Part shown: positions 10,418-34,621 of the stretch, one piece after another
Layout of the letters: each line of letters opens with the position of its first letter
Numbering within the stretch: the first letter of the stretch is position 1
Source of the DNA: Aestuariivirga sp.
GTDB lineage: Bacteria > Pseudomonadota > Alphaproteobacteria > Rhizobiales > Aestuariivirgaceae
Assembly: GCF_041738905.1 (NCBI RefSeq)
Contig: NZ_JBGSOZ010000151.1
Coordinates: 5,829-69,828 of the forward strand
DNA: 64,000 nucleotides
Direction of reading: 5' to 3'
Translations under genes and position numbers: made by a program
Notes under the pieces: generated by a model
Told to the model about the DNA's origin: nothing
The model's input: only the letters and a program-made list of their open reading frames with translations
The model's database searches: none

Positions 10418-10420
10418 ACC

Positions 10421-12044: not shown

Positions 12045-12115
12045 TTCTGTTATTGAAAGCTCAGAAATGTGTCCGGAGTTGAGCTCTTCCGATGTGACGA
12101 GCCAGATGAATTCAC

Positions 12116-12383: not shown

Positions 12384-12398
12384 CGCCATGAGGTATCG

Positions 12399-15256: not shown

Positions 15257-15365
15257 CCGGTTCCAAGATTGTTAAGGCTATGGTCAAGCGTTGTGGCACT
15301 GGTCGTGACCTGTGCAAAAGCAGTATTAGGCCGCTGGCCAAGAGGACTGCGGTCGCTGACGGCGT

Positions 15366-15944
15366 TTACGGACGCACCTTGTACACGCGGCCTCGGGTTT
15401 CGATCTTCTCGGACTCGATGGTGAGGCCGAGCTTCTTCTTGAGGGCACCTGCCATCGCGCCGCGCACCGTGTGAGATTGCCATCCGGTTGTGGCGACAAG
15501 ATCTTCGATGGTGGCGCCTTCCGGGCGCTGCAGCATTGCGATTATGGCAGCCTGTTTGGTGCCGTCACGCGTTTTGCGTTCCTTGGGAGCAGTCGCGGGT
15601 GTGAGCGGGGCTTCAACGTCGCCTGTGATTATTGCCGCTTCCGAGGATGTGGGAGATTCTGCGGCCGTGAGTGCGGCTGCTTCGGACTCTATCCCGAGTG
15701 CCGCCACTCCCGCTGCCGTGATGACGAGCGTGACGCCGTAACCATCGCCAGTCTCGCACCACAGGGGGGTACCAAGCTTGCGATTTGCTTCAACCTCTTC
15801 GAGGAGGCCCTTTTCGATGAGCGGATTGATCACCTTGTGGGCGGCGGCGCCCTTGAGGTTCGGCGGCAGTGGCAGCGCCAGATGGTTATCACGCTGCGCG
15901 GCAGCGCTGAGAACGATGAGTTGGGTATCGGAAAGTCTTGTCAT
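15366..15944 (-). CDS. DUF3489-domain protein
   Basis: MTRLSDTQLIVLSAAAQR; GTKQAAIIAMLQRPEGATI...GWQSHTVRG. Confidence 0.85.
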   Translation of the reverse strand: MTRLSDTQLIVLSAAAQRDNHLALPLPPNLKGAAAHKVINPLIEKGLLEEVEANRKLGTPLWCETGDGYGVTLVITAAGVAALGIESEAAALTAAESPTSSEAAIITGDVEAPLTPATAPKERKTRDGTKQAAIIAMLQRPEGATIEDLVATTGWQSHTVRGAMAGALKKKLGLTIESEKIETRGRVYKVRP

Positions 15945-16050
15945 TGGCGGTCGGCTCCTTTGGGCCGTGAGCCAGCGGGGATCGCCGGCTTCTACGACCC
16001 CGAGCCCCGCAATCAGACGGGGGCGGAGACTCGGCGTCCAATGAAGCGCT

Positions 16051-16272
16051 CTATTCGGCGTGCTCGCCTTCGTGGAAGGCGCTGTCGGTGATGCGCTTGA
16101 GGAGTTCGGCGTAGTGGCTGAGCGTTCCGACGTGACCCCAGTGGATCGTCTCGGGATCAGCACCGAAGTGATCGTCGCTGAGGGCCCGAAGGCGGGCGAG
16201 CATCGCGTCGATCTCGGCCTTCTTCGCGATGAAGGCGGCACCCGCCTTGCTGTTGTCTGAGGGTTTGCGCAT
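16051..16272 (-). CDS. Small prophage hypothetical protein
   Basis: AFIAKKAEIDAMLARL...HWGHVGTLSHYAELLKRITD; SD upstream; lies beside DUF3489. Confidence 0.65.
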   Translation of the reverse strand: MRKPSDNSKAGAAFIAKKAEIDAMLARLRALSDDHFGADPETIHWGHVGTLSHYAELLKRITDSAFHEGEHAE

Positions 16273-16379
16273 CTGCTTGCTCCTTGAGCCTCGTTTGATG
16301 ATCACACATTTGCTCTGTACACAGATCTTATCAAGTCGACCGGCAGCAACATGATTGCTCTTTCACGAGGCTGTAGATC

Positions 16380-16928
16380 ATGGGATTGTCGATCCGCGCC
16401 TACGCCGCCCATCGCGGTGTCAGCCATACGAGTGTCCGGAAGGCCATTGCCTCGGGACGGGTGACGCTGGAGCCGGATGGCAGCATCGACCCCGTAAAGA
16501 CCGACCGCAGCTGGGTGCAGAATGCAGATCCGTCGAAGGCCCGTGCGCCCCGGATCCTCAAGCCAGTGCCGGAAGCGGCTGTGAGCGCGGTGCGGGAGAC
16601 CCTCTCGGAGTCGGGTTCACCTCTTGTGGGCGGCATGAGCTACCTGCATGCCAAGACGGCAGAGAAGGTGCTCACCGTGCAGTTGCTGCGCGAGAAGCTC
16701 AGGCGTGAGAAGGGCGAAGTGGTCGAACGGGACTATGCCATCGAGCAGGGGTTCGCCTTTGCCCGCCGCATCCGAGACAGCTGGACTGGCTGGCCCGCAC
16801 GTGTCGCAGCCCTCATGGCGGCCGATCTCGTGGTAGACGTCCACAAGCTCGAGGCGCTGCTCAATACCCATGTCCGCGAACAGCTCAAGGCCTCAGCGGG
16901 AGACGACCTCAATCTCCGCGGCACATGA
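16380..16928 (+). CDS. Terminase small subunit (Nu1-like)
   Basis: N-terminal HTH (SIRAYAAHRGVSHTSVRKAI); overlaps the large subunit. Confidence 0.75.
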   Translation: MGLSIRAYAAHRGVSHTSVRKAIASGRVTLEPDGSIDPVKTDRSWVQNADPSKARAPRILKPVPEAAVSAVRETLSESGSPLVGGMSYLHAKTAEKVLTVQLLREKLRREKGEVVERDYAIEQGFAFARRIRDSWTGWPARVAALMAADLVVDVHKLEALLNTHVREQLKASAGDDLNLRGT

Positions 16929-18849
16929 CTACGAAGGCAACCGCCAGTTTCTCCGAAGCCTCACCGATGGCCTGACGCCGGACCCGCCGATGACCGTTGC
17001 GGAGTGGGCGGACACCTATCGCATCCTGTCCGGCAGGGCCGCAGCGGAAGCTGGAAAGTACAGGACATCGCGCACACCCTACATGCGCGAGATCATGGAG
17101 AGCCTGTCGCCCTCGAGCCCCATCGAGCGGGTGGTGTTCATGAAAGCAGCTCAGACCGGGGCGACGGAGGCTGGAAACAACTTCATCGGGTTCATCATCC
17201 ACCAGGCACCGGGTCCAATCCTTGCCGTGCAGCCGACGGTGGAACTGGCCAAGCGCAACTCGCAGCAGCGCATTGATCCACTCATTGAGGACAGCGCCGA
17301 GCTTCGGAAGATCGTGGCGCCGGCACGCTCCCGCGACAGCGGCAACACGGTGCTGGCAAAGCGGTTCCCCGGCGGACAGCTTGTGCTGACCGGTGCCAAC
17401 AGCGCAACGGGGCTTCGCTCCATGCCGGCCCGTTATGTGTTCCTCGACGAGGTCGATGCCTATCCCGGTGATGTGGATGGAGAGGGGGACCCGATTGCAC
17501 TGGCCGAAGTCCGCACCGCCACCTTCGGACACCGCAAGAAGCTGTTCCTGGTTTCGACACCGACGATCAAGGGTCTGTCACGCATCGAACGCGAATACGA
17601 TGCCTCGGATCAGCGGCGCTATTTCGTGCCGTGCCCGCATTGCGGAACCATGCAGTGGCTGCAGTTCGAACGGTTGCGCTGGGAGAAGGGCAGCCCGGGA
17701 ACAGCTGCCTACATCTGTCAATCCTGCGAGTTACCGATCACGGAAGCGGCCAAGACCGAGATGCTGGCGAAGGGCGAATGGCGTGCCACGGCAGAAGGCA
17801 ACAATACACGGACCCGCGGCTATCATCTCTCAGGCCTCTATTCGCCGGTAGGCTGGACCAGCTGGGCCGACATCGCAAGAAGCTGGGACGAGGCCCAGCA
17901 CAATGACGCGGCGCTCAAGACGGCCAAGAACGTGCTGCTGGGCGAGACCTGGATGGAGTCGGGCGAAGCGCCCGACTGGCAGCGCCTCTATGACCGGCGT
18001 GAACAGTGGAAGGTTGGCACCGTTCCGGAAAACGGACTCTTCCTCACGGCTGGTGCCGACGTCCAGAAGGATCGTATCGAGGTCGATGTCTGGGCCTGGG
18101 GGCGGGGGCTTGAAAGCTGGCTCATCGATCATGTTGTGATCGAGGGCGGACCCAGCGATCCGGGCTGCTGGCTCAAGCTGACAAGGCTTCTTTCGCAGAC
18201 CTGGGCCCATGCCAGCGGCCAGCACATGACGATTGCGCGGCTGGCCATCGACACAGGCTTCGAGACCAGTGCTGTTTATGCGTGGTCTCGGGCTGTGGGC
18301 TTCGCACAGGTGGCACCCGTCAAAGGCGTCGAAGGCTTCAACCGGGCGAGCCCGGTGACAGGTCCAACATTCGTGGATGCGACTATCGCAGGCAAAAGGC
18401 TCCGACGCGGTGCGAGGCTGTGGACAGTCGCCACCTCGACCTTCAAGGCCGAGACCTATCGCTTCCTGCGGCAGGACCAGCCGACCCGTGAAGAAATTAC
18501 TGCCGGTGCGATGGTCCCGCCCGGCACCATCCATCTGCCGGACTGGGCTGATGGCGAATGGTTGAAACAGCTGACCGCCGAGCAGCTGGTAACGGTCAAG
18601 ACGAAACGCGGCTTCCAGCGGCTCGAATGGCAGAAGCTTCGCGAACGCAACGAAGCGCTCGATGTTCGCGTCTATGCCCGCGCAGCCGCATGGATCGCCG
18701 GTGCCGACCGCTGGTCGGAGGCGCACTGGCAGGAACTGGAGCGGCAGTTGGCTGTCGATACTGAGGGGCTTGCTGGCCCTGAGCCGGTCAAATCCAGCGC
18801 CCGGCCGTCGGCGCAGCGTCGGACGGTCAGGTCGAGTTACATGGGGTGA
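16870..18849 (+). CDS. Terminase large subunit, GpA family (start uncertain)
   Basis: KAAQTGATE, FLDEVDAYP, STPTIKG, YFVPCPHC, GADVQKDR, NEALD. Confidence 0.95.
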   Translation: MSANSSRPQRETTSISAAHDYEGNRQFLRSLTDGLTPDPPMTVAEWADTYRILSGRAAAEAGKYRTSRTPYMREIMESLSPSSPIERVVFMKAAQTGATEAGNNFIGFIIHQAPGPILAVQPTVELAKRNSQQRIDPLIEDSAELRKIVAPARSRDSGNTVLAKRFPGGQLVLTGANSATGLRSMPARYVFLDEVDAYPGDVDGEGDPIALAEVRTATFGHRKKLFLVSTPTIKGLSRIEREYDASDQRRYFVPCPHCGTMQWLQFERLRWEKGSPGTAAYICQSCELPITEAAKTEMLAKGEWRATAEGNNTRTRGYHLSGLYSPVGWTSWADIARSWDEAQHNDAALKTAKNVLLGETWMESGEAPDWQRLYDRREQWKVGTVPENGLFLTAGADVQKDRIEVDVWAWGRGLESWLIDHVVIEGGPSDPGCWLKLTRLLSQTWAHASGQHMTIARLAIDTGFETSAVYAWSRAVGFAQVAPVKGVEGFNRASPVTGPTFVDATIAGKRLRRGARLWTVATSTFKAETYRFLRQDQPTREEITAGAMVPPGTIHLPDWADGEWLKQLTAEQLVTVKTKRGFQRLEWQKLRERNEALDVRVYARAAAWIAGADRWSEAHWQELERQLAVDTEGLAGPEPVKSSARPSAQRRTVRSSYMG

Positions 18850-18854
18850 CCGTG

Positions 18855-19070
18855 ATGGCGACACTCACAGATCTCCGCGCCAGGCGTGAGACACTGGCGG
18901 TGCAACGGTCATCGGGCGTGGCCCGCGTCAGCTACGAGGGACGGAGTGTCGACTATCGCAGCGTGGCCGAGATCGACCGCGCCATCGAGGCACTCGATCG
19001 CGAGATCGTGGCCGCTGAGGGGCGCCGCATCGTCCGGCATCTGCGCGTGACGACGGCAAAGGGGCTCTGA
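18855..19070 (+). CDS. gpW-like head completion protein
   Basis: Small ORF between terminase and portal; VSYEGRSVDY. Confidence 0.75.
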   Translation: MATLTDLRARRETLAVQRSSGVARVSYEGRSVDYRSVAEIDRAIEALDREIVAAEGRRIVRHLRVTTAKGL

Positions 19071-19074
19071 CGCC

Positions 19075-20592
19075 ATGGGCCTGTTCGATCTGTTCCGCCG
19101 CCGTGGGGCCGGCGGCCCGGCTGCCATGCGTGCTCGTCTCGAAGGGGCCATGGCGAAGCGGCGATTACGGGGATGGAACCCGCCGCTCGAGAACATCAAC
19201 ACGCTGGTGGCCTCGGGCGGCCCGCGGCTTCTGGCACGCGCGCGCGAACTGGTCGTCACCAATGGCTATGCCGCAAATGCCTGCGAGGCTTTCGCGGCGA
19301 ACCTTGTCGGCGATGGCATCAAGCCGTCGTCGCTGACGGCAAATGCGGAACTCCGCGATCGCATCCAGCGGCTCTGGCTCGCCTGGACCGACGAGGCGGA
19401 TGCCGACGGGCTGACCGATTTCTACGGCCTGCAGGCAATGGTGGCGCGCGAGATGTTCGTGGCGGGCGAATGTTTCGTCCGGCTGCGCCCGCGCCGGGCG
19501 GAGGATGGATTGCTGGTGCCGCTGCAACTGCAGCTCCTGCAATCGGAGATGCTGCCCTTCGACAAGATGGAGACGGGATCAAACGGCAACCGCATCCGCT
19601 GCGGCATCGAGTTTGACGCCATCGGCCGGCGCGTGGCCTATCATTTCCGCAGACGACATCCCGGCGACAGCACCGACCAGGGGATGGTGATCCCTGAGAC
19701 AGTGCGTGTGCCGGCTGCCAACGTGTTGCACATTTACCGGCCGATCGACGCCGGCCAGATCCGTGGCTTGCCGCATGTGGCGCCCGCCATGGTGCGGTTG
19801 TTCCTGCTCGATCAGTACGACGATGCCGAGCTCGACCGCAAGAAGACCGCAGCGATGTTCGCAGGCTTCATTACCAAGACCGCACCGGAAGAATCCATGA
19901 TGGGCGAGACGCATGCCGACCCTGAGGGCACTGCCATTGCCAGCCTTGAGCCCGGCACCATGCAGGTGCTGCTACCGGGGGAGGACGTGAAGTTCTCGAG
20001 CCCTGCCGACGTGGGCGGTGGTTACGAGGCCTTCCAGTACCGCACACTGCTCGCCGTCTCGGCTTCGCTGGGATTGCCCTATCACCTGGTGACGGGGGAC
20101 GTGCGGCAGGCAAATTATTCGAGCTTGCGCGCCGAGCTCGTCGAATTCCGCCGCCGCATGCAGCAGCTCCAATACGGCGTCATGGCACATCAGCTCTGCC
20201 GCCCGATCTGGGCGCGCTGGATGGAAACGGCATTGCTGGCGGGCGCGATCGAGCTTGATGATGCGGTGACCGCGCGCGCAGTTCAGTGGATTCCACCGCG
20301 TTGGGACTGGGTCGATCCCTTGAAGGACATCCAGGCACAGGTACTGGCGATGGAGGCAGGCATCACCTCACGGCGCAAGGTGGTCGAAGCCACAGGCTAC
20401 GACATCGAGGAAGTGGACCGCGAGAACGCCACGGACATGAAGCGTGCCGCCGATCTGGGCCTTGGTTATCGCACCGGCCCCGGCACGACGCAGGGTGCGC
20501 GGGCAACCCCTGCAACCCGGCCCGATCCCGGCGATGGCACGAGCGATAACAACGGCACCGGGACGACCGATCCCGCTACCGAACAGGAGTAA
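19075..20592 (+). CDS. Portal protein, lambda family
   Basis: RGLPHVAP, DAELDRKK, NYSSLRA, WVDPLKD. Confidence 0.95.
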   Translation: MGLFDLFRRRGAGGPAAMRARLEGAMAKRRLRGWNPPLENINTLVASGGPRLLARARELVVTNGYAANACEAFAANLVGDGIKPSSLTANAELRDRIQRLWLAWTDEADADGLTDFYGLQAMVAREMFVAGECFVRLRPRRAEDGLLVPLQLQLLQSEMLPFDKMETGSNGNRIRCGIEFDAIGRRVAYHFRRRHPGDSTDQGMVIPETVRVPAANVLHIYRPIDAGQIRGLPHVAPAMVRLFLLDQYDDAELDRKKTAAMFAGFITKTAPEESMMGETHADPEGTAIASLEPGTMQVLLPGEDVKFSSPADVGGGYEAFQYRTLLAVSASLGLPYHLVTGDVRQANYSSLRAELVEFRRRMQQLQYGVMAHQLCRPIWARWMETALLAGAIELDDAVTARAVQWIPPRWDWVDPLKDIQAQVLAMEAGITSRRKVVEATGYDIEEVDRENATDMKRAADLGLGYRTGPGTTQGARATPATRPDPGDGTSDNNGTGTTDPATEQE

Positions 20593-20596
20593 TTCC

Positions 20597-21625
20597 ATGA
20601 ACAGCTGGTACACGATCCGCGCCCGCGCAACGGGTGCGGAAGTGGCGATCTATGACGAGATCGGCGCCCATGGCGTCTCGGCGAAAGGCTTCCTCGCCGA
20701 GCTTGGCGCGCTGCCCGAGGGAACGCCCATCGATCTCAGGCTGAACAGCCCGAGTGGGTCGGTCTTTGATGCTGTGGCGATCTATAACGCGATCAAGCGC
20801 CATGAAGGCCCAGTCACGGTCTGGATCGATGGCATCGCCGCCTCGGCTGCCTCCTACGTGGCGATGGCGGGCGACGAGATTGTCATGCCTGAGAACGCCT
20901 TCCTGATGATCCACGATCCGGCCGGCCTCGTGATGGGCACGGCGGATGACATGCGCGCTATGGCTGATGCGCTCGACAAGGTGAAGGGCAGCCTGGTGCA
21001 GGGCTACGCCTCGAAGTCCGGCCGCGACCCGCAAAATATTGCCGCGTTGATGGCGGCCGAGACCTGGTTCGACGCGAAGGAAGCACTGGACGCAGGACTT
21101 GCCACCCGCATCGCCGAGCCCGTGCGCATTGCCGCGCGCTTCGACATCGCCCGCTTCCGCAATGCACCCCCTGCGCTGATCGAGGCGGCGGAGCCCGACA
21201 CGCCGGAAACCGTTCCGGAAGGGAACGGTTTGGAGGGCGACCCGGTCGTCAGTGGCCTCGAACCGGATGACATTGCTGATGATGCCAGCGCCGATGAACA
21301 ACCCGGCTCTGCCGAGGGGCATGTCAAGCACGCCAACATGCCCGCACCCGCGAGTGGGGCACCGGCCGATGCCGCGGCAATCCGAGCGGAGACCATCGCA
21401 CATGCCCGTGCCGTCATCGATCTCTGCCGCCTCGCCCGTCAGCCGCAGATGGCGGGCCGCTTCCTCGAGCAGAACGCAAGCCTCGACGAGGTTCGCGCTG
21501 CACTTCTGGCCGCGAAGTCAGACGCCGAGCCCGAGATCACGCCGCACCACCCGCAACCCGGCCGCAAGTCAGCCGCCCGCCCCTGGGGCGAAATTGTCGC
21601 CCGCACCTTCAAACTGAAAGGATGA
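20597..21625 (+). CDS. ClpP-type prohead protease/scaffold
   Basis: IYDEIG, NSPSG, GIAASAAS, LMIHDP, ETWFDAKEA; acidic Pro-rich tail. Confidence 0.9.
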   Translation: MNSWYTIRARATGAEVAIYDEIGAHGVSAKGFLAELGALPEGTPIDLRLNSPSGSVFDAVAIYNAIKRHEGPVTVWIDGIAASAASYVAMAGDEIVMPENAFLMIHDPAGLVMGTADDMRAMADALDKVKGSLVQGYASKSGRDPQNIAALMAAETWFDAKEALDAGLATRIAEPVRIAARFDIARFRNAPPALIEAAEPDTPETVPEGNGLEGDPVVSGLEPDDIADDASADEQPGSAEGHVKHANMPAPASGAPADAAAIRAETIAHARAVIDLCRLARQPQMAGRFLEQNASLDEVRAALLAAKSDAEPEITPHHPQPGRKSAARPWGEIVARTFKLKG

Positions 21626-24142: not shown

Positions 24143-24469
24143 CTAGGCGGTGCGCGGCCCCCAGAGGATGATTCCCGCACCGACAATGCACACCAACGAA
24201 CCGATCAGATCCCATCGGTCAGGCTTGATGCCATCAACAGCCCAAAGCCAGCCAATGCTGGCTGCGATGTAGATGCCGCCGTAAACCGCATAGGCTCGAC
24301 CGGCATTCTCTGTCGGGGCGAGCGTCAGCAACCAGGCAAAGGCAACCAGCAGGACAATGCCGGGCAACAGCCAGAGCGGGGACTTACCGTGGTTCATCCA
24401 GGCCCAGAAGGCGAAGCACCCAGTAATTTCGGCAATTGCGGCAGCAGCGTAAATCATGAAGGCATACAT
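24143..24469 (-). CDS. ynfA: YnfA/UPF0060 membrane protein
   Basis: AAIAEITGCFAFW, GRAYAVYGGIYI, PDRWD. Confidence 0.9.
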   Translation of the reverse strand: MYAFMIYAAAAIAEITGCFAFWAWMNHGKSPLWLLPGIVLLVAFAWLLTLAPTENAGRAYAVYGGIYIAASIGWLWAVDGIKPDRWDLIGSLVCIVGAGIILWGPRTA

Positions 24470-24630: not shown

Positions 24631-25398
24631 GTGTATAAACCGGTACTCATGCTGCTCTCTTTAAACGCTGAACTCCTGCTCGCCCTGTGCATGTTTCTGG
24701 GTGCGGTGCTTTACACCTCGGTCGGTCATGCCGGGGCGTCGGCGTATATTGCCATGATGGCGCTGTTCAGTGTTCCGGCAGTGGTCATGAGGCCCACGGC
24801 CCTTGTCCTGAATATCCTGGTCGCCAGCTTCACGTCGTTCCGGTTTATCAAGGCGGGCCTCTTCCGCTTTCGCACACTCTGGCCCTTCCTCGTCGGTGCG
24901 CTGCCGATGGCGTTCCTCGGCGGCTATATCCAGCTCCCCGGCGAATTTTATCGGCCGCTTGTCGGTGTCGTACTCCTGATTGCCGCTGTGCGGCTGCTGT
25001 GGCCCTCGGAACTCCGCAGCAACCGGGAATCTTCTGACCCTCCGCTGTGGCTCGCGGTGTTGGCCGGGGCGGTCATTGGCCTGCTCTCGGGGCTGACGGG
25101 AACGGGCGGCGGTATCTTCCTCTCACCGCTCCTGCTGTTCTTAGCGTGGTCAGAGACGCGCACGGCCTCGGGTGTGGCGGCGGTGTTCATTCTCTGCAAT
25201 TCGGTGGCGGGCCTGCTTGGCAATATCGCGTCAGTGAAGTCACTGCCTCCTGACCTACCGCTCTTCGCAGCGGCTGTGCTGCTCGGCGCTGTCATTGGAA
25301 CAACCCTCGGCATCAGCAAACTCGCTCAACAGGGGGTATTGAAGGCTCTCGGGCTGGTGCTCATCGTTGCCGGATTCAAGCTCATTGGCGCTTATTGA
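24631..25398 (+). CDS. TauE/SafE-family exporter (start may be 24649)
   Basis: VGHAGASAY, GLTGTGGGIFLSP repeats; hydrophobic. Confidence 0.85.
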   Translation: MYKPVLMLLSLNAELLLALCMFLGAVLYTSVGHAGASAYIAMMALFSVPAVVMRPTALVLNILVASFTSFRFIKAGLFRFRTLWPFLVGALPMAFLGGYIQLPGEFYRPLVGVVLLIAAVRLLWPSELRSNRESSDPPLWLAVLAGAVIGLLSGLTGTGGGIFLSPLLLFLAWSETRTASGVAAVFILCNSVAGLLGNIASVKSLPPDLPLFAAAVLLGAVIGTTLGISKLAQQGVLKALGLVLIVAGFKLIGAY

Positions 25399-25451
25399 AC
25401 ACGCTGCGAACCTTTGACGGCTCTGCCCCGCTGAGCTAGGCTTCTGTCTTT

Positions 25452-25505
25452 GTGATGGGGATGGGGCTCCCCGATAACCGCCGCAAGGCTGATAGCTCCT
25501 GCTGC
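25452..25505 (+). ncRNA. Fluoride (crcB) riboswitch
   Basis: GGGGAUGGGGCUCCCC-GAUAACCGCC-GCAA-GGCUGAUAGCUCCUGC: P1 GGGGA/UCCCC, pseudoknot GGGGCU/AGCUCC, AACCGC and GCUGAU conserved segments; lies 5' of the MFS gene. Confidence 0.85.
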
Positions 25506-25608
25506 AAAAGGGCCGCTCTGGCTCTGTCGTGGTGGGAGTGTGTCTGTGCCTTCACACTCGTCATGCAGACCTGACGTTGCCTGAACAGTTGAACGGAAAG
25601 GTGATGTC

Positions 25609-26817
25609 ATGGCAACGTCCAAACCCTCGGTATCGCAGCTGGCGAGAATCCCTCGCGGAGTCTGGGCCCTCGGCTTTGTGAGCATGTTTATGGACATCTC
25701 ATCCGAGATGATCCATGCGTTGCTGCCCATCTATCTCGTGGTGGTGCTCGGCACCTCCGCACTGACGGTGGGACTCATTGAAGGCATCGCCGAAGCAACC
25801 GCCAGCATTACCAAAATCTTTTCAGGTGCGCTGTCGGACTGGCTCGGCAAACGCAAGCTGCTGGCTGCCATCGGTTATGGGCTTGCTGCCTTTACCAAGC
25901 CGATATTCCCGCTGGCCACTTCGGTGAGTTGGCTGGTGGCGGCACGATTCATCGACCGTATCGGCAAAGGCATAAGGGGTGCGCCGCGTGATGCACTGGT
26001 GGCCGACATTGCACCGCCTGAACTGCGCGGTGCGAGCTTCGGCCTCCGGCAGTCTCTCGATACAGTCGGGGCATTCCTCGGTCCGCTGGCTGCCATCGGG
26101 CTCATGGCTGCCAGCGGCGACAATTTCCAGCTCGTGTTCTGGATTGCTGTTGTCCCGGCTTTCATCGCCTTCGGTCTGATGGTGTTCGGTGTCGAGGAGC
26201 CCGCAAAGCATGAAGAGGGCGTAAAGAAGCCCCCGCTGCGCTTTGCGGACGCGAAAAAACTCAAGGGGGCATTTTGGGCCGTCGTGGCCGTCGCCTCGGT
26301 GCTGACGCTGGCCCGGTTCTCCGAGGCCTTTCTGGTGCTCCGTGCCCAGAATGTCGGGTTCCCGATTGCCTTCATCCCGGCCTTCATGGTGGTCATGAAC
26401 ATCGTCTATGCGCTCTCTGCCTATCCGGCCGGAGTGCTGTCGGACAGGTTTGGCCGCTATGTCGTGCTGATGGCGGGCATTGTCCTGTTGATCGTCGCTG
26501 ACCTCATCCTGGCCTGGGGCAACACGATTCCGATGGCACTGCTCGGCGTCGTGTTCTGGGGGCTGCATATGGGGCTCACCCAGGGACTCCTCGCCACCCT
26601 CGTGGCTGATACCGCACCGCCTGAACTGCGTGGCACCGCCTTTGGCGTGTTCAACTTTGCAGGTGGCATTGCCATGCTCTTTGCCAGCCTCATTGCAGGC
26701 GGCCTTTGGGACGCTTACGGCCCGGCGGCCACCTTCTATGCCGGGGCGGCTATTACGGCCGTAGCACTCGCCGGGCTGGTCATCGTTCGTGCCCGCTATT
26801 CTGCGAGGGCCGCCTGA
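25609..26817 (+). CDS. MFS transporter
   Basis: GALSDWLGKRK and GVLSDRFGR motif-A copies; about 12 TM segments. Confidence 0.9.
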   Translation: MATSKPSVSQLARIPRGVWALGFVSMFMDISSEMIHALLPIYLVVVLGTSALTVGLIEGIAEATASITKIFSGALSDWLGKRKLLAAIGYGLAAFTKPIFPLATSVSWLVAARFIDRIGKGIRGAPRDALVADIAPPELRGASFGLRQSLDTVGAFLGPLAAIGLMAASGDNFQLVFWIAVVPAFIAFGLMVFGVEEPAKHEEGVKKPPLRFADAKKLKGAFWAVVAVASVLTLARFSEAFLVLRAQNVGFPIAFIPAFMVVMNIVYALSAYPAGVLSDRFGRYVVLMAGIVLLIVADLILAWGNTIPMALLGVVFWGLHMGLTQGLLATLVADTAPPELRGTAFGVFNFAGGIAMLFASLIAGGLWDAYGPAATFYAGAAITAVALAGLVIVRARYSARAA

Positions 26818-26822
26818 CGGCG

Positions 26823-27188
26823 ATGTTTGCCAAGGTCGGCATTGAGAATATCAATTCCGATTTTGCCACCTTCATTCGCACCATCGTTATCCTGTTCGTG
26901 GTGGCCGGGTTGCTGGCGATCACCGGGCAATGGCAATCGCCATCGACCGTATCCAGCCGGCCCTATCTCTTCCCGGTACCTTCGGGTTCCGCCACGGGAG
27001 CCTCGTGCCTGTGCTACTTCCGCGCCCTCAAAATCGGAGACGCAGCGCGGGTGGCGCCCATCGACAAGCTGAGTGTAGTCCTGGTGGTGATCTTTGCAAC
27101 GATCTTCCTCGGAAAGCATCTATCTTGGCCGAACTGGCTCGGTGTTGCCTTCATTGCGGCCGGGGCCGTGCTTGTGTCCTTGAAGTAG
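26823..27188 (+). pseudogene. EamA-family small transporter, 5'-truncated and degenerate
   Basis: FAKVGIENINSDFAT, YFRALK, VAPIDKLSVV; first TM missing; helix-breaking Pro residues in TM3. Confidence 0.65.
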
Positions 27189-27507
27189 GCGCATTCGAGC
27201 AGATCATTCAGTGGCGCGGATTGCCACCGCGCGCGATCATCAAGTGGTGTACCTGATGGTGCATCCCAACCGTGAGAATTCCAAAGAAGCCGAGAGCCTT
27301 GGCTTTCTCCTGATCGGCCAGATCACAGCCGTGTCAAGCGCTGGATTCGTATTTGAGCACTCTCAAACCCTCGAACTCCCCAGCCTCCATCCAACTACTT
27401 CAACTCGTTCTACTGTGCATGTGTCGGCGAATACCGCACGAAGATGTGACACAGAGCGGACCATACCCACGATTGATGTACGATCTCAGATATGGCAAGA
27501 AAGGCTT

Positions 27508-27879
27508 ATGAGAACGACCTGGCTACGTTATTGTTGCTGTATTCTTGGCGTTCTTGCCATGCTGGGAAGTGTGTTGTCTGTACCACTCGTCTCAGCCGAT
27601 GCATTTGCGCCGAAGTCAGACATGAGCATGCCGTCCATGACGATGTCAGATGTAGGGGCAGAAGGCTGTCAGAAGCAGGCCGCTGCATGTGCTGACTGCG
27701 GAGATACGAAATGCCCAAATCTGACTAGCTGTCTCATTGTCTTTGTAAACTCGCTGCCGGCCCCTGCAGCCATCGCGTACCGCAGCGTAGTGGGCGCGAC
27801 GGAAAGTTTTGCCTTCTCGTCAGCGACTGCTCCGGCTGGCATGCTCATTCCTCCCTTAATCCGGCCTCCGATCGTCTAA
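27508..27879 (+). CDS. Secreted Cys/Met-rich leader protein (CutF/DUF2946-like)
   Basis: Signal peptide, CADC and CPNLTSC, C-terminal PPLIRPPIV; first gene before the cus operon. Confidence 0.65.
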   Translation: MRTTWLRYCCCILGVLAMLGSVLSVPLVSADAFAPKSDMSMPSMTMSDVGAEGCQKQAAACADCGDTKCPNLTSCLIVFVNSLPAPAAIAYRSVVGATESFAFSSATAPAGMLIPPLIRPPIV

Positions 27880-27977: not shown

Positions 27978-28370
27978 ATGCTTCGTTACATCATGAAGGC
28001 GGCTGCTCTGGGCACCGTTCTTCTCACCAATTCTGTGACGGCCTCGGCCGATATCAAAGACTACGAGTTTCAACTCGTGACCAATGAGTTGAAACAAGGT
28101 GAGGCCGAAGTTGTCGTCAAGCTCGTCCGCAAACCATCTGGCGACGCAGTTCCCGATGCTGTGATCTTTGCTCAGAGAATCGATATGGGTCCAGATGGCA
28201 TGGAAACCATGCAAAGTTCTATAGAGGCCATAGCGTCTACAGAACCTGGCACTTACCGGTTCAAAACCAATCTGACTATGGTAGGCAACAGGGCTTTTTC
28301 GCTCGCTGCAAAGATCCAGGGCGAGACAGGCACTCTTGAGAACAAGCTCGTCCTCAAGGCCACGAAGTGA
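27978..28370 (+). CDS. FixH/YtkA-like periplasmic protein
   Basis: Signal peptide; DMGPDGMETM; LAAKIQGE; coupled to cusB. Confidence 0.7.
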   Translation: MLRYIMKAAALGTVLLTNSVTASADIKDYEFQLVTNELKQGEAEVVVKLVRKPSGDAVPDAVIFAQRIDMGPDGMETMQSSIEAIASTEPGTYRFKTNLTMVGNRAFSLAAKIQGETGTLENKLVLKATK

Positions 28371-29773
28371 GACGCGCCTTGAGAACAGTTGTTACCGTCG
28401 CGGTCATCTCGGCTGCAGCGGGAGCCGGGGTGTGGGCTGGCCAGATGGGCCTTGTGAAGATCCCATCGGAAATCTCTGGTGCTGTTTGGACTGTCGGACA
28501 TCCTCAGCCAGCCCGCGAAGTTATCTACTACCGTGATCCGACCGGAAAGCCGAACTACTCACTGACACCCAAGAGCACTGTTGATGGTCAACCATACGGA
28601 CCAGTCTATGCTAGCGAGGAAAAGGGTTTCGGGTCAGGAGACAACGAGGTCGTTGCTGCCCCAGAGCCTAAAATGGATCGGAAGATCAAGTTCTACCGCA
28701 ATCCGATGGGCTTGCCTGATACATCCCCCGTCCCCAAGAAAGACTCGATGGGAATGGACTACATCGTCGTCTATGAGGACGAGGACCAGAGCGACCCTTC
28801 CATTGTCAAGGTAAGCATCGAAAAGGTGCAGCGCGCTGGCGTCAGGACCGAGTCTGTCGCGCGACGGATATTATTGGAACCAATCCATGCACCGGGCTCG
28901 ATCCAGCTCGATGAGCGCCGCGAACGTTCCCTCACGCTGCGAGCCGAAGCATTTATCGAGAAAGTTTATGCCGGTGCAACAGGCCAGCATGTGAAGGCTG
29001 GTGAGCCGCTGTTTCGCTTCTACAGCCCGCAAATTGTCCAGGCGTTGGTCGACTACCGGCTTGCGGTGGCCGGCGGCCAAAAGCAGGCAGGCGCGCGCAA
29101 GCTCCTCAATCTCGGCATTCCGGAAGAGTTCATTGCTGCCATTCCGGCAAAAGGCGACATTCCATTCTCGATGGACTGGCCTTCACCCGTCGATGGCGTG
29201 CTGATGAGCAAGACGGTTGTTGCCGGGGCTCGCGCCATGCCGGGAGATGAACTCTATAGGCTGGCAGATGTCTCCACAGTATGGGTGATTGCCGATGTGT
29301 CCGAGGCAGACGTTGGCCGGGTCAAAATCGGCGACCCCGCGCAAGTCACCCTGCGGTCCTATCCGGGCGACATCTTCCGCGGAAAAGTCGCCTTCATTCT
29401 CCCTGAGCTGAAGGCCGAGACCCGCACAGCGCAAATCAGGATCGAGTTGCCCAATCCGGAGCACAAACTGCTGCATCGCATGTATGCAGATGTTGAGATC
29501 GATGCCGGACAATCCGCAAAGGTACTGGCAATACCGGCATCAGCGATCATCGACAGCGGCAGCCGGCAGGTGGCCATTGTCCAGGTAGGCGAAGGCCAGT
29601 TCAAGCCGACGGAAGTTCGCGTTGGGCGTCGAGGATCCGAGTATGTGGAAATTCTCGAAGGACTGAAGGAAGGGGAGCAGGTCGTCACGCGGGCCAATTT
29701 CCTGATCGACGCCGAAAGTAATCTGCAGGCTGCGCTGACCGGGCTTTCGGCTCCGGAAGGAGCCGCGCCGTGA
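28367..29773 (+). CDS. cusB: CusB-like RND periplasmic adaptor
   Basis: YRNPMG...DSMGMDY metal-binding domain; VVTRANFLIDAES. Confidence 0.9.
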   Translation: MRRALRTVVTVAVISAAAGAGVWAGQMGLVKIPSEISGAVWTVGHPQPAREVIYYRDPTGKPNYSLTPKSTVDGQPYGPVYASEEKGFGSGDNEVVAAPEPKMDRKIKFYRNPMGLPDTSPVPKKDSMGMDYIVVYEDEDQSDPSIVKVSIEKVQRAGVRTESVARRILLEPIHAPGSIQLDERRERSLTLRAEAFIEKVYAGATGQHVKAGEPLFRFYSPQIVQALVDYRLAVAGGQKQAGARKLLNLGIPEEFIAAIPAKGDIPFSMDWPSPVDGVLMSKTVVAGARAMPGDELYRLADVSTVWVIADVSEADVGRVKIGDPAQVTLRSYPGDIFRGKVAFILPELKAETRTAQIRIELPNPEHKLLHRMYADVEIDAGQSAKVLAIPASAIIDSGSRQVAIVQVGEGQFKPTEVRVGRRGSEYVEILEGLKEGEQVVTRANFLIDAESNLQAALTGLSAPEGAAP

Positions 29774-32700
29774 TTAGCAAAATCATTGAGTGGTCGGCCC
29801 GCAACATGGTGCTGGTGATCATTGGCACGCTGTTTTTGGCGCTTGCAGGCGCCTATGCAGTCAGGACCACGCCGCTCGATGCCATCCCTGACCTCTCGGA
29901 TACGCAGGTCATTGTCTATACCGAGTTTGCGGGCCAGGCACCGCAGGTTGTCGAGGACCAGGTTACCTATCCGCTCACCACATCGCTTTTGAGCGTACCG
30001 AAGTCCAAGGTGGTACGTGGCTTCTCGTTCTTCGGCGTGTCCTTTATCTACATCATCTTCGCGGACGGTACGGACCCTTACTGGGCGCGCTCGCGGGTGC
30101 TCGAATACCTGAACGCCGCAGCCAGACAATTACCGCAGGGTGTCACCCCATCGCTGGGCCCAGACGCCACGGGGGTCGGCTGGGTCTACCAATATGCCCT
30201 GACGGGCAAAGGCCGCGATCTGGGCGAGCTCCGCACTACGCAAGACTGGCAGCTGCGCTATGCTCTGGCCAAGGCCGAGGGTGTGGCCGAGGTGGCAAGC
30301 GTTGGCGGCTTCGTCAAGCAATACAGTGTGGTCGTCGATCCCCGCCAGATGCAGAGCTTTGGCATCTCATTGAACGATGTGCGCAATGCCATCCGTGCCA
30401 GCAATATGGATACCGGCGGCCGCACGGTCGAGATTTCCGAGACGGAATATGCCGTGCGCGGACGTGGCCTGTTCCGCAATGTAAAGGACATTGAGACGAT
30501 CGTCCTAAAGGCAGAGGGTGGCACGCCGGTCCTGCTGCGCGACGTGGCCCGCGTCGAGTTCGCGCCCGACGAGCGGCGCGGCATCACCGAGTTGAATGGC
30601 GAAGGTGAAGCCGTTGGCGGCATCGCCATCCAGCGTTATGGTGAGAATGCCCTGTCAGTGATCGACAACGTCAAGGCCCGGCTTGAAGACGTAAGGGCCA
30701 GTTTGCCAGAGGGCACCGAAGTGCAAACGGTTTATGACCGCTCCGATCTCATCCATCGTGCCATTGAGACGCTGAAGAGCACGCTGCTGGAGGAAAGCCT
30801 CATTGTTGCCGCCGTCTGCGTGATCTTCCTGCTGCACGTCAGGAGCGCACTGGTGGCGATCCTCATGCTGCCTGTTGGTATCCTGATTGCCTTCGCGCTG
30901 ATGCGCATGCTTGGGCTATCATCCAACATCATGAGCCTTGGTGGTATCGCAATAGCCATTGGCGCCATGGTGGATGCGGCAATCGTCATGATTGAGAATG
31001 CTCACAAACACTTGGAGCGGGCAAAGCCGGATACACCACGCATCGACATCATTGTCGCAGCAGCGAAGGAAGTCGGACCGGCGCTCTTCTTCGGGCTTTT
31101 GGTCATCACCGTGTCGTTCTTGCCGATTTTTGCTCTGGAAGCGCAGGAGGGTCGCTTATTCAAGCCCCTGGCCTACACCAAGTCTTTCGCCATGGCGGCA
31201 GCGGCGGTACTGTCGATCACGCTAGTACCCGCGCTGATGTATCTGTTCATCCGAGGGCGCATTGTTGCCGAGCACAGAAATCCACTCAATCGATTTTTGA
31301 TCTGGCTCTATCGCCCGGTGATCAAGGGCGTGCTGAAGGCAAAGATCTTTACGGTTGTGGTAGCCATTGGGGTTCTGGCTGGGAGCTATTGGCCTGCCAT
31401 GCAACTCGGCTCCGAGTTCATGCCCAACCTTGACGAGGGTACGTTGCTTTATATGCCAACGACCTTACCGGGACTTTCCGTTACCAAAGCGGCCGAACTG
31501 TTGCAAACCCAGAACAAGATCATCAAGACCTTCCCGGAAGTAGCATCGGTCTTCGGCAAAGCGGGACGAGCCAACAGCGCGACCGACCCCGCCCCAACCG
31601 AGATGATCGAGACAGTCGTCAATTTGAAGCCCAGATCAGAATGGCGTCCAGGCATGACCGCCGATTCGCTGATTGCCGAGATGGATAAGTCTCTGCAGTT
31701 TCCCGGCGTGTCGAATGCCTGGACGATGCCGATCAAGGCGAGAATCGACATGCTCTCCACCGGCATTCGAACGCCCGTTGGCATCAAGGTGTTTGGTCCC
31801 GACTTGAACGAGATCGAGAGACTTGGCCGCGAGATTGAGAAGGCCCTGCGCGCCCTACCGGAAACCTCGAGCGCCTTCTCCGAGCGGGTGATTGGCGGAT
31901 ACTATCTCGAGATCACGCCCGATCGCGAACGGCTGGCCCGCTACGGAATGATGGTCCAGGACGTGCAGGACACCATCGCCATGGCACTGGGTGCGGAGTC
32001 GATCACCACTGCCGTCGAGGGACGTGAACGCTATGCTGTCAACCTGCGGCTGCCGCGGGACCTGCGCTCTGATCCCCAGTCGATTGCGCGCAATGTGCGG
32101 GTCAGCGGGTCCAATGGCGTGTCGGTGCCGCTGGGTGAGGTCGCCGACATCAAGCTCACCACGGGGCCGTCGACCATCCGCACCGAGAACGCCCAGCTTG
32201 CCGCCTATATCTTTGTCGATACCCGCGACAGCGACATTGGCGGATATGTCGCCAAAGCTCAGCGCGCTGTCTCGGAGAACGTCAAGTTCCCGCAAGGCTA
32301 TTTCATTACATGGAGTGGCCAGTTCGAATACCTGCAGCGGGCCAAGGAGCGACTGCAGATCGTCGTGCCGGTTACATTGCTCATTATCTTCCTGCTGCTT
32401 TACCTGAACTTCCGCAAACTGACTGAGACACTCATCGTTATGTTGTCACTGCCTTTCTCGGTCGTCGGCGGCTTGTGGCTGATGTGGTGGATGGGATTCA
32501 ATATGTCGGTCGCCGTAGTAGTCGGCTTCATCGCCCTCGCCGGTGTTGCGGCTGAAACTGGGGTTGTCATGTTGATCTATTTGCAGAACGCTTTGGCAGA
32601 GTGGCGGCACCGTGCGGATGCCCAAGGCCGAATATTCACCAAAGCAGACTTGCATGGAGCAGTTATGGAAGGAGCGGTTGACCGCGTGCGCCCCAAGATC

Positions 32701-32934
32701 ATGACGGTCGCTGCTATCATGGCGGGGTTGCTGCCTATTCTGTGGAGCAGCGGAACTGGCTCCGAAGTCATGCAGCGCATCGCCGTACCGATGATCGGCG
32801 GCATGGTGTCATCGACTGTCCTGACCTTAGTCGTCATTCCCGCCATCTTCGCGCTTGTCGAGGGCGCAAGAATGCGAATGAGAAAGAAGCGCGAACTCGA
32901 TCCGTCACATCTTGGACCTGCAACCCAGACTTAG
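29770..32934 (+). CDS. cusA: CusA/SilA heavy-metal RND pump
   Basis: DAIPDLSDTQV, GAMVDAAIVMIEN, WTMPIKARIDMLSTG, RPKIMT. Confidence 0.93.
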   Translation: MISKIIEWSARNMVLVIIGTLFLALAGAYAVRTTPLDAIPDLSDTQVIVYTEFAGQAPQVVEDQVTYPLTTSLLSVPKSKVVRGFSFFGVSFIYIIFADGTDPYWARSRVLEYLNAAARQLPQGVTPSLGPDATGVGWVYQYALTGKGRDLGELRTTQDWQLRYALAKAEGVAEVASVGGFVKQYSVVVDPRQMQSFGISLNDVRNAIRASNMDTGGRTVEISETEYAVRGRGLFRNVKDIETIVLKAEGGTPVLLRDVARVEFAPDERRGITELNGEGEAVGGIAIQRYGENALSVIDNVKARLEDVRASLPEGTEVQTVYDRSDLIHRAIETLKSTLLEESLIVAAVCVIFLLHVRSALVAILMLPVGILIAFALMRMLGLSSNIMSLGGIAIAIGAMVDAAIVMIENAHKHLERAKPDTPRIDIIVAAAKEVGPALFFGLLVITVSFLPIFALEAQEGRLFKPLAYTKSFAMAAAAVLSITLVPALMYLFIRGRIVAEHRNPLNRFLIWLYRPVIKGVLKAKIFTVVVAIGVLAGSYWPAMQLGSEFMPNLDEGTLLYMPTTLPGLSVTKAAELLQTQNKIIKTFPEVASVFGKAGRANSATDPAPTEMIETVVNLKPRSEWRPGMTADSLIAEMDKSLQFPGVSNAWTMPIKARIDMLSTGIRTPVGIKVFGPDLNEIERLGREIEKALRALPETSSAFSERVIGGYYLEITPDRERLARYGMMVQDVQDTIAMALGAESITTAVEGRERYAVNLRLPRDLRSDPQSIARNVRVSGSNGVSVPLGEVADIKLTTGPSTIRTENAQLAAYIFVDTRDSDIGGYVAKAQRAVSENVKFPQGYFITWSGQFEYLQRAKERLQIVVPVTLLIIFLLLYLNFRKLTETLIVMLSLPFSVVGGLWLMWWMGFNMSVAVVVGFIALAGVAAETGVVMLIYLQNALAEWRHRADAQGRIFTKADLHGAVMEGAVDRVRPKIMTVAAIMAGLLPILWSSGTGSEVMQRIAVPMIGGMVSSTVLTLVVIPAIFALVEGARMRMRKKRELDPSHLGPATQT

Positions 32935-33447: not shown

Positions 33448-33867
33448 TCAGTGCTCGCCGCCGCAACGCTTGTGGTCGCTGAGCACCTCGATGACTCGGC
33501 AATGGCTCACACGGCCATGGCCGCACTCTTCGACCATGCGTTTCAATTCTTTGCGAAGAGCCTGAAGTTTCTTCAGTCGTAACTCGACTTGTTCGAGATG
33601 CGAACGGGCGATGATGTCGGCGGCGGAGCAACTCGTGTCCGGATTGTCCGACAAATGCAGCAATTCCCGGATTTCTTCAATGCCGAAGCCGAGTTCGCGG
33701 GCGTGACGGATGAACTTGAGGCGACGCGCGTCCTCCGGACCATAGAGCCGGTGGCCACCCTCGGAGCGTGCAAAAGGCCGGATCAGACCGATCTCCTCGT
33801 AATAGCGGATGGTTTGAACCTTTGTGGCCGCGATCACGGCGAGTTTACCGATAGCCATGCCAGCCAT
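33448..33867 (-). CDS. MerR-family metal regulator (ZntR/CadR/PbrR type)
   Basis: TIRYYEEIGL HTH; three spaced Cys (DTSC, EEC, SHC). Confidence 0.9.
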   Translation of the reverse strand: MAGMAIGKLAVIAATKVQTIRYYEEIGLIRPFARSEGGHRLYGPEDARRLKFIRHARELGFGIEEIRELLHLSDNPDTSCSAADIIARSHLEQVELRLKKLQALRKELKRMVEECGHGRVSHCRVIEVLSDHKRCGGEH

Positions 33868-33878
33868 GGAATTTCCTC

Positions 33879-33909
33879 TTGAATCTCCAGTGGCTGGAGA
33901 TTGTATCAA
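33879..33909 (+). promoter_or_regulatory. MerR-type promoter/operator
   Basis: TTGAAT-N19-TATCAA with perfect dyad AATCTCCAG-tgg-CTGGAGATT (33882-33902). Confidence 0.85.
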
Positions 33910-33973
33910 AGAATCAGCGACGCTCAAAGGGCGGCGGCTAGACAACGCCGTCATATGACAGGAACGGAATACC

Positions 33974-34621
33974 ATGAATCGAAGGCAATCCATTATTGCG
34001 CTGGGAGCAGCAGGTCTGATGGGGGCCAGTTTCGCCAGCCAACGCTCCTTTGCGGAGGAGGAAGCCGCCGAGGTCGCCAAGCGTCTGCTGGACGCTGCGT
34101 CCCCACTTGGAGATCGCTCGCTCGGCAAAGCTGACGCTCCCGTTGTGATGATTGAGTATGCCTCGGCGACGTGCCCGCATTGCGCCGAGTTCCACGAAAT
34201 GGTTCTGCCGCAAATCAAGTCCGAGTACATCGAGACCGGAAAGGTCCGCTTCATCTTTCGGGAATTCCCGCTGGATCAACTGGCGCTTGGCGCCTTTATG
34301 CTTACCCGATGCATCTCCGAGGACAAGTATTTCGCGACACTCGATCTCATGTTCCAGAAGCAGAAAACATGGGCGCAGGCCAAGAACCCAGCCGACGAAC
34401 TGTTCAAGGTCATGCAGTTGCCAGGCATGGACCAAGCGGGGTTTGAAGCTTGCGTGAAGCGTGAGGAACTTGCCAAGGCCATCGTTGAATCGTCAAAGAA
34501 AGCTGCAAAGGACTTCGCCATCAAGGGAACGCCAGCGATCTTCATCAATGGCCAGTTCATAGATGCACACGAGGACATGGCGTCGGTCAAGATCGCCTTG
34601 GACAAGGCCATTGGCCAGTAG
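33974..34621 (+). CDS. DsbA-family thiol-disulfide oxidoreductase
   Basis: Twin-Arg-like signal, [13 protein letters not shown]. Confidence 0.9.

Follow-up and report, generated by a model that had tools for sequence, protein, structure and literature searches.

What does a fluoride riboswitch control when the gene behind it encodes neither of the two established kinds of fluoride exporter? The question is raised by a 64,000-nucleotide stretch of DNA from Aestuariivirga sp. (contig NZ_JBGSOZ010000151.1, positions 5,829 to 69,828; hereafter the window), in which a fluoride aptamer, the crcB motif, stands in sense orientation in the 5'-leader of a gene for a 402-residue transporter of the major facilitator superfamily (MFS). 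We propose that a fluoride-responsive ON switch with its own promoter controls this gene, or this gene and a truncated EamA-like open reading frame (ORF) behind it, and that the MFS protein is an accessory, proton-coupled exporter that complements fluoride efflux. We put the probability of this reading, taken as a whole, at roughly two in three.

Bacterial fluoride defence as understood today consists of two exporter families and a set of poorly understood accessory genes associated with the riboswitch. The preliminary description of this locus held that only Fluc (CrcB) and CLC-F are established as bacterial fluoride exporters. This is essentially right (PMC11139923), but BenE-I of Pseudomonas putida, found by suppressor genetics in a crcB mutant, was implicated in 2026 as contributing to fluoride tolerance (PMC13104614). 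BenE-I is a precedent for a transporter outside Fluc and CLC-F in this role; unlike the MFS protein of the window, it belongs to the BenE family and is not controlled by a riboswitch (PMC13104614). The reviewed riboswitch-associated genes comprise exporters, Na+/H+ antiporters, pyrophosphatase, HAD phosphatases, enolase, formate hydrogen lyase and chorismate mutase, with no MFS among them (PMC11139923), and none is mentioned in the original crcB-motif paper and its supplements (PMC2864571). We found no paper mentioning an MFS gene behind a fluoride riboswitch; an earlier notice might stand in Baker et al. 2012 or in Stockbridge et al. 2012. What is new here, judged from sequence and gene context, is a conserved MFS clade with acidic residues in transmembrane helices 1 and 2 (TM1, TM2) and a motif-C-like TM5 that is repeatedly linked to fluoride genes.

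The aptamer

The fluoride riboswitch family RF01734 provides the only Rfam match across the whole window. By cmscan the match scores 51.3 bits, well above the gathering score of 34 (E 2.7e-11), and is full-length, covering model positions 1-64 of 64 (Table 1); a second covariance model, R1, built in this analysis, gives the same aptamer 63.5 bits. Alignment to the Rfam consensus places all the core nucleotides, namely GAUGG in the P1 loop, AACCGCC, GGCUGAU and CUCC. These results bear out the crcB-motif architecture that had been described upstream of the MFS gene, with the aptamer ending 101-105 nt before the ATG. Compared with the usual pseudoknot, GGAGU(U)/(G)ACUCC, one pair is altered on both sides, from U-A to C-G, and the compensatory change seen in the preliminary description is thereby upheld. 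P1, P3, the pseudoknot and the conserved core are common to the window aptamer and the fluoride riboswitches of B. cereus crcB and T. petrophila. By its sequence the RNA is a bona fide member of RF01734 and a real, standard fluoride aptamer.

Covariation was examined in an alignment of 18 aptamers from loci with related MFS genes. Over P1, P3 and the pseudoknot, 98% of cells are paired, column shuffles give 90% and none of the 500 equals the observed value, double-sided changes occur in six pairs overall, and the pairing signal collapses when the partners are shifted by one column. The pseudoknot is 100% paired and carries double-sided changes in three of its six pairs. This is the more independent result, because the alignment was fitted to P1 and P3 and not to the pseudoknot. 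Chance is excluded as the source of the window aptamer.

Linkage of the MFS clade to fluoride genes

We define the fluoride-linked clade by orthology at 39% identity or more over nearly the full length, together with the invariant TM1 and TM2 signatures given below. Eighty orthologue loci, one per species, were scanned with the aptamer covariance model and the matches rechecked with Rfam; nine have an aptamer above the gathering score within 4 kb of the MFS gene, three of which had been recovered by a regular-expression search. Six are from Bradyrhizobium (sp. 143, B. iriomotense, sp. Y36, B. centrolobii, sp. DOA9 and B. frederickii; loci L019, L020, L024, L030, L032 and L042), where the aptamer lies directly upstream of MFS, followed by crcB-crcB-DUF190. 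In a Methylomirabilia metagenome-assembled genome (L022) MFS abuts an aptamer-NhaP-Usp-CrcB operon, on a Candidatus Manganitrophus plasmid (L067) the order is aptamer-CLC-MFS, and in Mesorhizobium kowhaii (L026) an aptamer followed by crcB lies 2.8 kb from MFS. A crcB gene stands within 4 kb of MFS in 11 of the 80 loci, directly downstream of it in the six Bradyrhizobium riboswitch loci and in L007, L010 and L083. The last is a plasmid-like contig whose MFS is 81% identical to that of the window and whose MFS and crcB frames overlap by 4 nt. On a rough estimate that assumes one or two such elements per multi-megabase genome, an aptamer or crcB would fall within 4 kb by chance in well under 1% of genomes, against the 11-14% observed. 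The fluoride-linked members are scattered over a neighbour-joining tree of the MFS proteins, so the linkage arose or was retained several times.

The reverse search started from the RNA. A metagenome scan with a generic aptamer-core pattern gave 120 loci, 105 of them with at least 600 nt downstream, where CrcB is found in 68 and NhaP in 19. A same-clade MFS, co-oriented in the operon, follows 5 of the 105 aptamers: three cases are Bradyrhizobium-like (aptamer-MFS-CrcB-CrcB-DUF190, MFS at 67-69% identity), one is a low-GC operon of the order aptamer-CrcB-DUF190-HEAT/Zn-ribbon-DUF6062-MFS (39%), and one, L097, is a high-GC, actinobacterial-like operon of the order aptamer-enolase-dynamin-family GTPase-MFS (40%). 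At two further loci a more distant MFS (33%) stands immediately behind the aptamer. Taken together, the recurrent co-location of the clade with aptamers, crcB, CLC, DUF190 and enolase in independent lineages strongly supports its link to fluoride; on this genomic evidence the clade is clearly part of a fluoride "super-regulon".

Within the window, the claim that no Fluc or CLC-F gene is present holds: tblastn of the 64 kb with two CrcB proteins, one riboswitch-linked CLC and one NhaP gave a best E of 0.09, no CrcB signature motif was found, and the ORFs behind the aptamer contain no CRCB domain. The broader idea that the MFS stands in place of Fluc or CLC-F survives for the window, where neither is nearby, and fails for most of its linked relatives, which co-encode crcB or CLC. 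MFS shares an operon with crcB in the six Bradyrhizobium species, in L091, L137 and L160, and in L007, L010, L083 and L123, and it follows CLC in L067. Because the MFS usually travels with Fluc or CLC, an accessory role is likelier than that of a substitute fluoride exporter, and the same co-encoding argues against the third class of fluoride exporter proposed in the preliminary description. Fluc, CLC-F and the window MFS share their regulatory input, the fluoride riboswitch, and in many relatives their operons, but there is no homology between the 12-TM MFS protein and either the four-TM, dual-topology Fluc or CLC.

Some details of these loci deserve record. The crcB of L026 (about 900-1160, minus strand) shifts frame after ...ALPIGG and before LPWGTIIINITG, which points either to a mistake in the assembly or to a pseudogene. 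In L067 (about 2200-2260) the riboswitch-linked CLC has GNNLI where canonical CLCs have GSGIP; we take GNNLI to be a CLC-F signature and call this protein CLC-F-like on that assumption and on its position behind the aptamer, NCBIfam holding no dedicated CLC-F model. The dynamin-like GTPase is a puzzling member of the L097 fluoride operon. In L146 two fluoride aptamers lie about 600 nt apart, at 6526-6578 (minus) and 7167-7218 (plus), an arrangement that presumably serves two divergent operons; behind one of the aptamers comes a distant MFS (33%).

The leader as a predicted switch

A promoter-like site upstream of the aptamer would set the transcript start at about the first aptamer nucleotide. 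It is kept in the two homologous leaders L205 and L210, whose MFS proteins are 91% and 89% identical to that of the window and which have the same promoter-aptamer-leader-MFS unit; a similar motif, TTGTCC...GCTAGGCT, stands upstream of the Bradyrhizobium aptamers. A strict sigma-70 scan called no promoter in the window leader. From the promoter-like site we infer that the aptamer-MFS unit has its own promoter and is not read through from the upstream TauE gene.

For the leader, in which about 100-105 nt separate the aptamer from the MFS start codon, the folding models give competing structures. The minimum free energy (MFE) structure of the unconstrained leader is an anti-aptamer helix (duplex -19.1 kcal/mol), mutually exclusive with both the aptamer and the hairpin at 25536-59. 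The G(U/C)GGGAG element that it engages is conserved in L205, L210 and the Bradyrhizobium leaders. Once the aptamer nucleotides are withheld, in a fold that mimics the ligand-bound state, the GAGTGTG/CACACTC hairpin forms, its strands lying as previously described; by itself this hairpin is not significant, and its structure is retained in L205 and L210 with a different 3' strand. In the mechanism that we propose, the 3' half of the aptamer, including the pseudoknot strand, would pair with the downstream G(U/C)GGGAG element when ligand is absent, and the element would go into the hairpin instead when the aptamer is folded. Fluoride binding would toggle the leader between the two structures and raise MFS expression. 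To our knowledge all characterised members of the fluoride riboswitch family are ON switches, and we infer by analogy that the window switch is likewise turned on by fluoride. The 3' strand of the pseudoknot doubles as one arm of an alternative downstream helix, a feature that the classical ON switches also have.

From known fluoride riboswitches the window differs in having no intrinsic terminator that overlaps or follows the aptamer, in its 100-nt leader with two more conserved hairpins before the start codon, and in carrying an MFS gene rather than crcB or eriC-F as payload. The terminator scan found no intrinsic terminator in the window leader, and no U-tract follows the 25536-59 hairpin; judged by its sequence, the platform is unusual in being terminator-less. 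The output step is probably Rho-dependent termination or translation initiation, because an intrinsic terminator is missing. The Bradyrhizobium leaders show what the same first relay can drive: folding predicts a canonical terminator, CCCGCC-N4-GGCGGG-U6, with an antiterminator relay. Without ligand the pseudoknot strand captures the element and the terminator forms; once the aptamer is engaged, the element is free to act as an antiterminator by pairing with the terminator 5' strand (the MFE structure in L042 and L030). These operons share with the window a similar promoter-like motif, the GGGG/CCCC P1, the relay element G(C/U)GGGAG and, as first gene, an MFS orthologue (67-69%), but have the terminator, the antiterminator relay, and two crcB genes and DUF190 behind MFS, all of which the window lacks.

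Nearer the gene, a 9-bp stem encloses the Shine-Dalgarno sequence (SD) and the ATG. Its pairing probability is about 0.99 in both modelled states, its energy is -19 to -21 kcal/mol in all three leaders (window, L205 and L210), and it covaries (GACGUUGCC/GGCAACGUC; in L210 GAUGUUGCC/GGCAGCGUC; in L205 GACGCUGCC/GGCGGCGUC). It does so though its 3' strand is coding. In a hot-spring organism this modelled stem could act as a thermometer-like or stability element. A relay from the 25553-59 strand to the SD was considered and rejected, as its duplex energies are no better than those of shuffled controls in all three leaders.

The MFS protein

The protein matches MFS_1 with E 9e-44 (150 bits against a threshold of 33.4). 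Its AlphaFold2 model (pLDDT 88, pTM 0.87) has the canonical fold with 12 long helices, and Foldseek assigns it to MFS structures with probability 1.00. The nearest solved structures, MFSD10, NorA, YajR and SLC37A4, are at most 22% identical in sequence; no NCBIfam model is passed, and the homologues, which number in the thousands, are all named just "MFS transporter". The Hyphomicrobiales orthologues are 72-91% identical to the window protein. The earlier characterisation of this MFS as functionally uncharacterised is thus borne out. The structure model, NCBIfam and PDB sequence searches, tried as routes to a substrate, returned only the generic MFS fold and DHA1-like neighbours.

Conservation within the clade says more. 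Motif A, GALSDWLGKRK at residues 73-83 between TM2 and TM3, follows the pattern G-x-L-x-D-R/x-x-G-R/K-R/K and is conserved across the clade. Invariant are VS..D..SEM....P in TM1 (D29, E33), G.IEG.AE.TA in TM2 (E58, E62), R113..D116-R117.GKG.R...RD, and a motif-C-like DT.GA..GPL in TM5. D29, E33, E58, E62, motif A and the TM5 motif do not vary across phyla. The fluoride-linked members compared come from five or more lineages; their invariant positions cluster in the N-domain, and the window MFS has every one of them. Motif C is a mark of MFS proton antiporters, and acidic residues embedded in the membrane in TM1, of which MdfA is an example, take part in proton and cation-substrate coupling. 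By this analogy, the acidic TM1/TM2 residues and the antiporter-type TM5 suit an anion pore less well than a proton-coupled exporter whose substrate is a cation or a small polar solute, and the highly polar conserved core suggests a small hydrophilic substrate rather than drugs. The DHA1-type proton antiporters NorA, MdfA and YajR, and MFSD10, are the best matches in sequence and fold and share motif A, the motif-C-like TM5 and the embedded acidic residues, whereas the window MFS is only 19-22% identical to them and has the clade's own invariant TM1/TM2 signature.

These elements make up the reading that we prefer. The transcription unit, monocistronic or MFS plus the truncated EamA frame, lies on the margin of a metal-resistance island, in an alphaproteobacterium from a hot spring. 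Its MFS belongs to a clade that recurs in fluoride-response operons as an accessory member, in most cases beside Fluc (crcB) or CLC. By a DHA1-like antiporter mechanism the protein most likely exports a cation or small polar solute, one that would be harmful or limiting under fluoride stress. It would probably complement fluoride efflux, not replace it. The other suggestion of the preliminary description, that the protein exports a metabolite of fluoride stress, may also hold.

Possible control by ChrB_N-type proteins

In 14 of 84 MFS loci a gene of about 180 codons encoding only ChrB_N (PF20229) lies directly upstream of MFS and replaces the riboswitch; these include L007, L069, L083 and L026, and 4 of the 14 also have crcB. 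ChrB_N-MFS modules occur as well on plasmids of hot-spring isolates (L211-L213); some of the modules share the window's TauE and YnfA neighbours, and some have crcB downstream. The Neotabrizicola shimadae plasmid (L212), with ChrB_N-DUF1127-MFS-YnfA-TauE, and L083, with TauE-ChrB_N-MFS-CrcB, have the same MFS clade and the same kind of neighbours as the window, but a protein regulator gene sits where the window has its riboswitch. This gene arrangement suggests that the same module is controlled by either an RNA or a protein sensor, and ChrB_N proteins might be regulators of fluoride-response modules. In the ChrB_N-type loci of Rhizobium and Mesorhizobium a PAP2-superfamily phosphatase follows MFS (L011, 5235-5786, and seven other loci). 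Phosphatases are classic fluoride targets, so the PAP2 gene may hint at a fluoride-related module.

Alternative explanations

Several observations weigh against the reading of a fluoride-switched accessory exporter. About 85% of the orthologue loci have no fluoride gene within 4 kb of MFS, and four close relatives (L084, L209, L206 and L207, at 89-90% identity) have no aptamer, so the function of the clade need not be fluoride-specific. All three members of the window clade (window, L205 and L210) carry MFS as the sole aptamer payload and no crcB or CLC in the visible flanks, as would be expected if MFS by itself protected against fluoride. As to the switch, the leader position and, by folding, a competing anti-aptamer helix are seen, and the modelled leader has neither a terminator nor a coupling to the SD/AUG stem: thermodynamic models found no pairing that connects the two. 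The proposed cation or polar-solute substrate comes from a motif analogy with the MFS literature. Runs in which the locus was found are DNA metagenomes only, with no RNA run among them.

The third of these points keeps alive the idea that the MFS itself exports fluoride, by F-/H+ antiport or as a metal-fluoride complex (MgF+, AlFx), and so constitutes a third bacterial class next to Fluc and CLC-F; it would then be the window clade's only fluoride defence under riboswitch control. Many lineages tie the clade to fluoride genes, its acidic TM1/TM2 cluster could, speculatively, bind cationic metal-fluoride species, about 10% of the orthologue loci are riboswitch-linked, near the roughly 15% quoted for Fluc (PMC11139923), and BenE-I shows that non-canonical transporters can lower cytoplasmic fluoride (PMC13104614). 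We consider this quite unlikely nonetheless. Most linked operons already have one or two crcB genes or a CLC, and two systems moving F- would be redundant or cycle futilely; the invariant residues are acidic, with no conserved cationic or Phe-box-like features for F- coordination; and the absence of crcB applies to the window and the visible flanks, not to whole genomes. Extended to the clade at large, as a third fluoride-resistance transporter that exports fluoride or a cationic metal-fluoride complex by proton antiport under riboswitch or ChrB_N control, the proposal is similarly doubtful. If it were true, ChrB_N-type proteins would be the first protein-based fluoride-responsive regulators, and the window clade would show an MFS transporter working alone, with no Fluc or CLC-F in view.

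A rather unlikely reading makes the MFS a monovalent cation/proton antiporter that serves pH and ion homeostasis during HF influx, an analogue of NhaP. The acidic TM1 residues resemble those of MFS proteins of the MdfA type, for which Na+(K+)/H+ antiport is a further activity. After exporters, the commonest riboswitch genes are Na+/H+ antiporters (PMC11139923); NhaP stands behind 19 of the 105 sampled aptamers, and no sampled MFS-aptamer operon has NhaP, a difference that is not significant at an expected overlap of about 1. The case is purely analogical, however; L022 has MFS and NhaP side by side, and beyond the MFS fold there is no similarity to known cation/proton antiporter families. Very unlikely, in our view, is a rearrangement in a mobile resistance island by which an operon of the aptamer-MFS-crcB type lost its crcB, or a riboswitch-promoter cassette landed before a general stress or efflux MFS with no specific role in fluoride. 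Such an origin would suit a unit that stands where a prophage-like block meets a metal-resistance island and is followed by a truncated EamA gene, and a clade in which most orthologues are regulated otherwise (ChrB_N upstream in 14 loci, no aptamer in about 70 of 80) and stand among RND pumps, PAP2 and toxin-antitoxin genes. But three distinct contigs keep the promoter-aptamer-leader-MFS unit, with changes that compensate each other, which argues that it is maintained and no one-off scar; MFS proteins of the same clade at only 39-40% identity stand in fluoride operons of unrelated composition; and an aptamer within 4 kb by chance is roughly estimated for about 0.3% of genomes, against 11% observed.

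Through this analysis an anonymous "MFS transporter" becomes a defined, widely distributed clade in fluoride operons of at least four phyla-level lineages, one that alternates between riboswitch and ChrB_N-type protein control. It raises two questions: what fluoride stress demands besides F- efflux, and whether protein fluoride sensors exist. The clade is present in culturable Bradyrhizobium species and on replicons of the tractable Cupriavidus and Ralstonia, and answers to these questions would bear on the engineering of fluoride-tolerant strains for organofluorine degradation or synthesis.

Genomic surroundings

The EamA-like ORF starts 5 nt after the MFS stop and is probably co-transcribed with it; an independent public contig of identical sequence has the same gene calls for both. 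Relative to its closest homologue (114 aa, 61% identity, L188) it is without TM1 and for that reason looks N-terminally truncated. In L188, a metagenomic contig, the homologue follows crcB behind a fluoride aptamer, and on that basis EamA-like proteins may be a second fluoride-linked payload family. A 222-aa ORF at 27211-27879 was rejected as an operon member, only its C-terminal part from 27508 looking genuine. The segment 27508-27879 probably encodes a secreted protein of about 123 aa, with the signal peptide MRTTWLRYCCCILGVLAMLG followed by the sequence MSMPSMTMSD...C..C.DCGDTKC, rich in Met and Cys; it matches nothing in Pfam and may bind metal in the periplasm, and it is grouped with the YtkA-CusBA copper genes downstream. 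With the EamA frame truncated and the 27508 gene grouped with copper genes, the payload of the riboswitch is essentially the MFS gene.

Table 1. Positions of the aptamer, leader elements and genes in the window.
Feature	Position	Strand	Basis
Prophage-like block: helicase, primase/VapE, ParB-methylase, DUF3489, terminase GpA, lambda-type portal, ClpP-type protease	3051-21625
YnfA-family small membrane protein	24143..24469	-	NF002586, 133.9 bits against cutoff 114
TauE/SafE-family permease, directly upstream of the promoter-like site	24631..25398	+	PF01925, E 1e-32
Promoter-like site: TTGACG (25414-19), 16-nt spacer, CTAGGC (25436-41)	25414..25441	+	from sequence, inferred
Fluoride aptamer	25448..25508	+	Rfam RF01734
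Aptamer P1	GGGG 25457-60 / CCCC 25469-72	+	from sequence
Aptamer pseudoknot	GGGGCT 25463-68 / AGCTCC 25494-99	+	from sequence
Aptamer P3	GCC 25480-82 / GGC 25487-89	+	from sequence
Anti-aptamer helix: 25491-25505 (pseudoknot 3' strand and flank) with 25529-25544 (GUGGUGGGAGUGUGUC)	25491..25544	+	folding
Hairpin: GAGTGTG 25536-42 / CACACTC 25553-59	25536..25559	+	constrained folds
SD/ATG stem, 9 bp: GACGTTGCC (25574-82) / GGCAACGTC (25611-19), enclosing SD (~25597-25604) and ATG (25609)	25574..25619	+	folding
MFS transporter gene, 402 aa, riboswitch payload	25609..26817	+	PF07690 MFS_1
EamA-like ORF, 121 aa, single-domain	26823..27188	+	PF00892, E 1e-18; gene call
Copper/metal resistance island, including YtkA, DUF411 and two histidine kinases (two-component systems)	27963-58923
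Adaptor-RND pairs	28367-32934 and 42201-47035
MerR	33448-34254	-
P-type ATPases	35316-37496; 49600-52047 (-)
Multicopper oxidase	47942-49522

The TauE gene lies outside riboswitch control and is context only; it adjoins MFS also in L205, L210, L083 and on the Neotabrizicola plasmid. YnfA adjoins MFS in L048, L078, L082 and L212 and is a recurrent neighbour of the clade. No protein neighbour is common to all 80 orthologue loci, the partners being those of sub-clades: CrcB, ChrB_N, PAP2, YnfA and TauE.

The locus at full identity was found in hot-spring metagenome runs only; high fluoride is common in geothermal waters, a setting that favours the reading preferred here. The window is a mosaic in which a prophage-like block adjoins a resistance island. 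The island runs in the order YnfA (minus strand), TauE, aptamer-MFS, YtkA, a CusB-like adaptor with a resistance-nodulation-division (RND) pump, DUF411, MerR, a copper-type P-type ATPase, two-component systems, a second adaptor with RND pump, a multicopper oxidase and a second P-type ATPase. The prophage-like block ends before any capsid or tail genes, where the island starts. In L082 (GCA_000745135.1) an 81%-identical MFS, with YnfA and ars genes, lies among phage structural genes.

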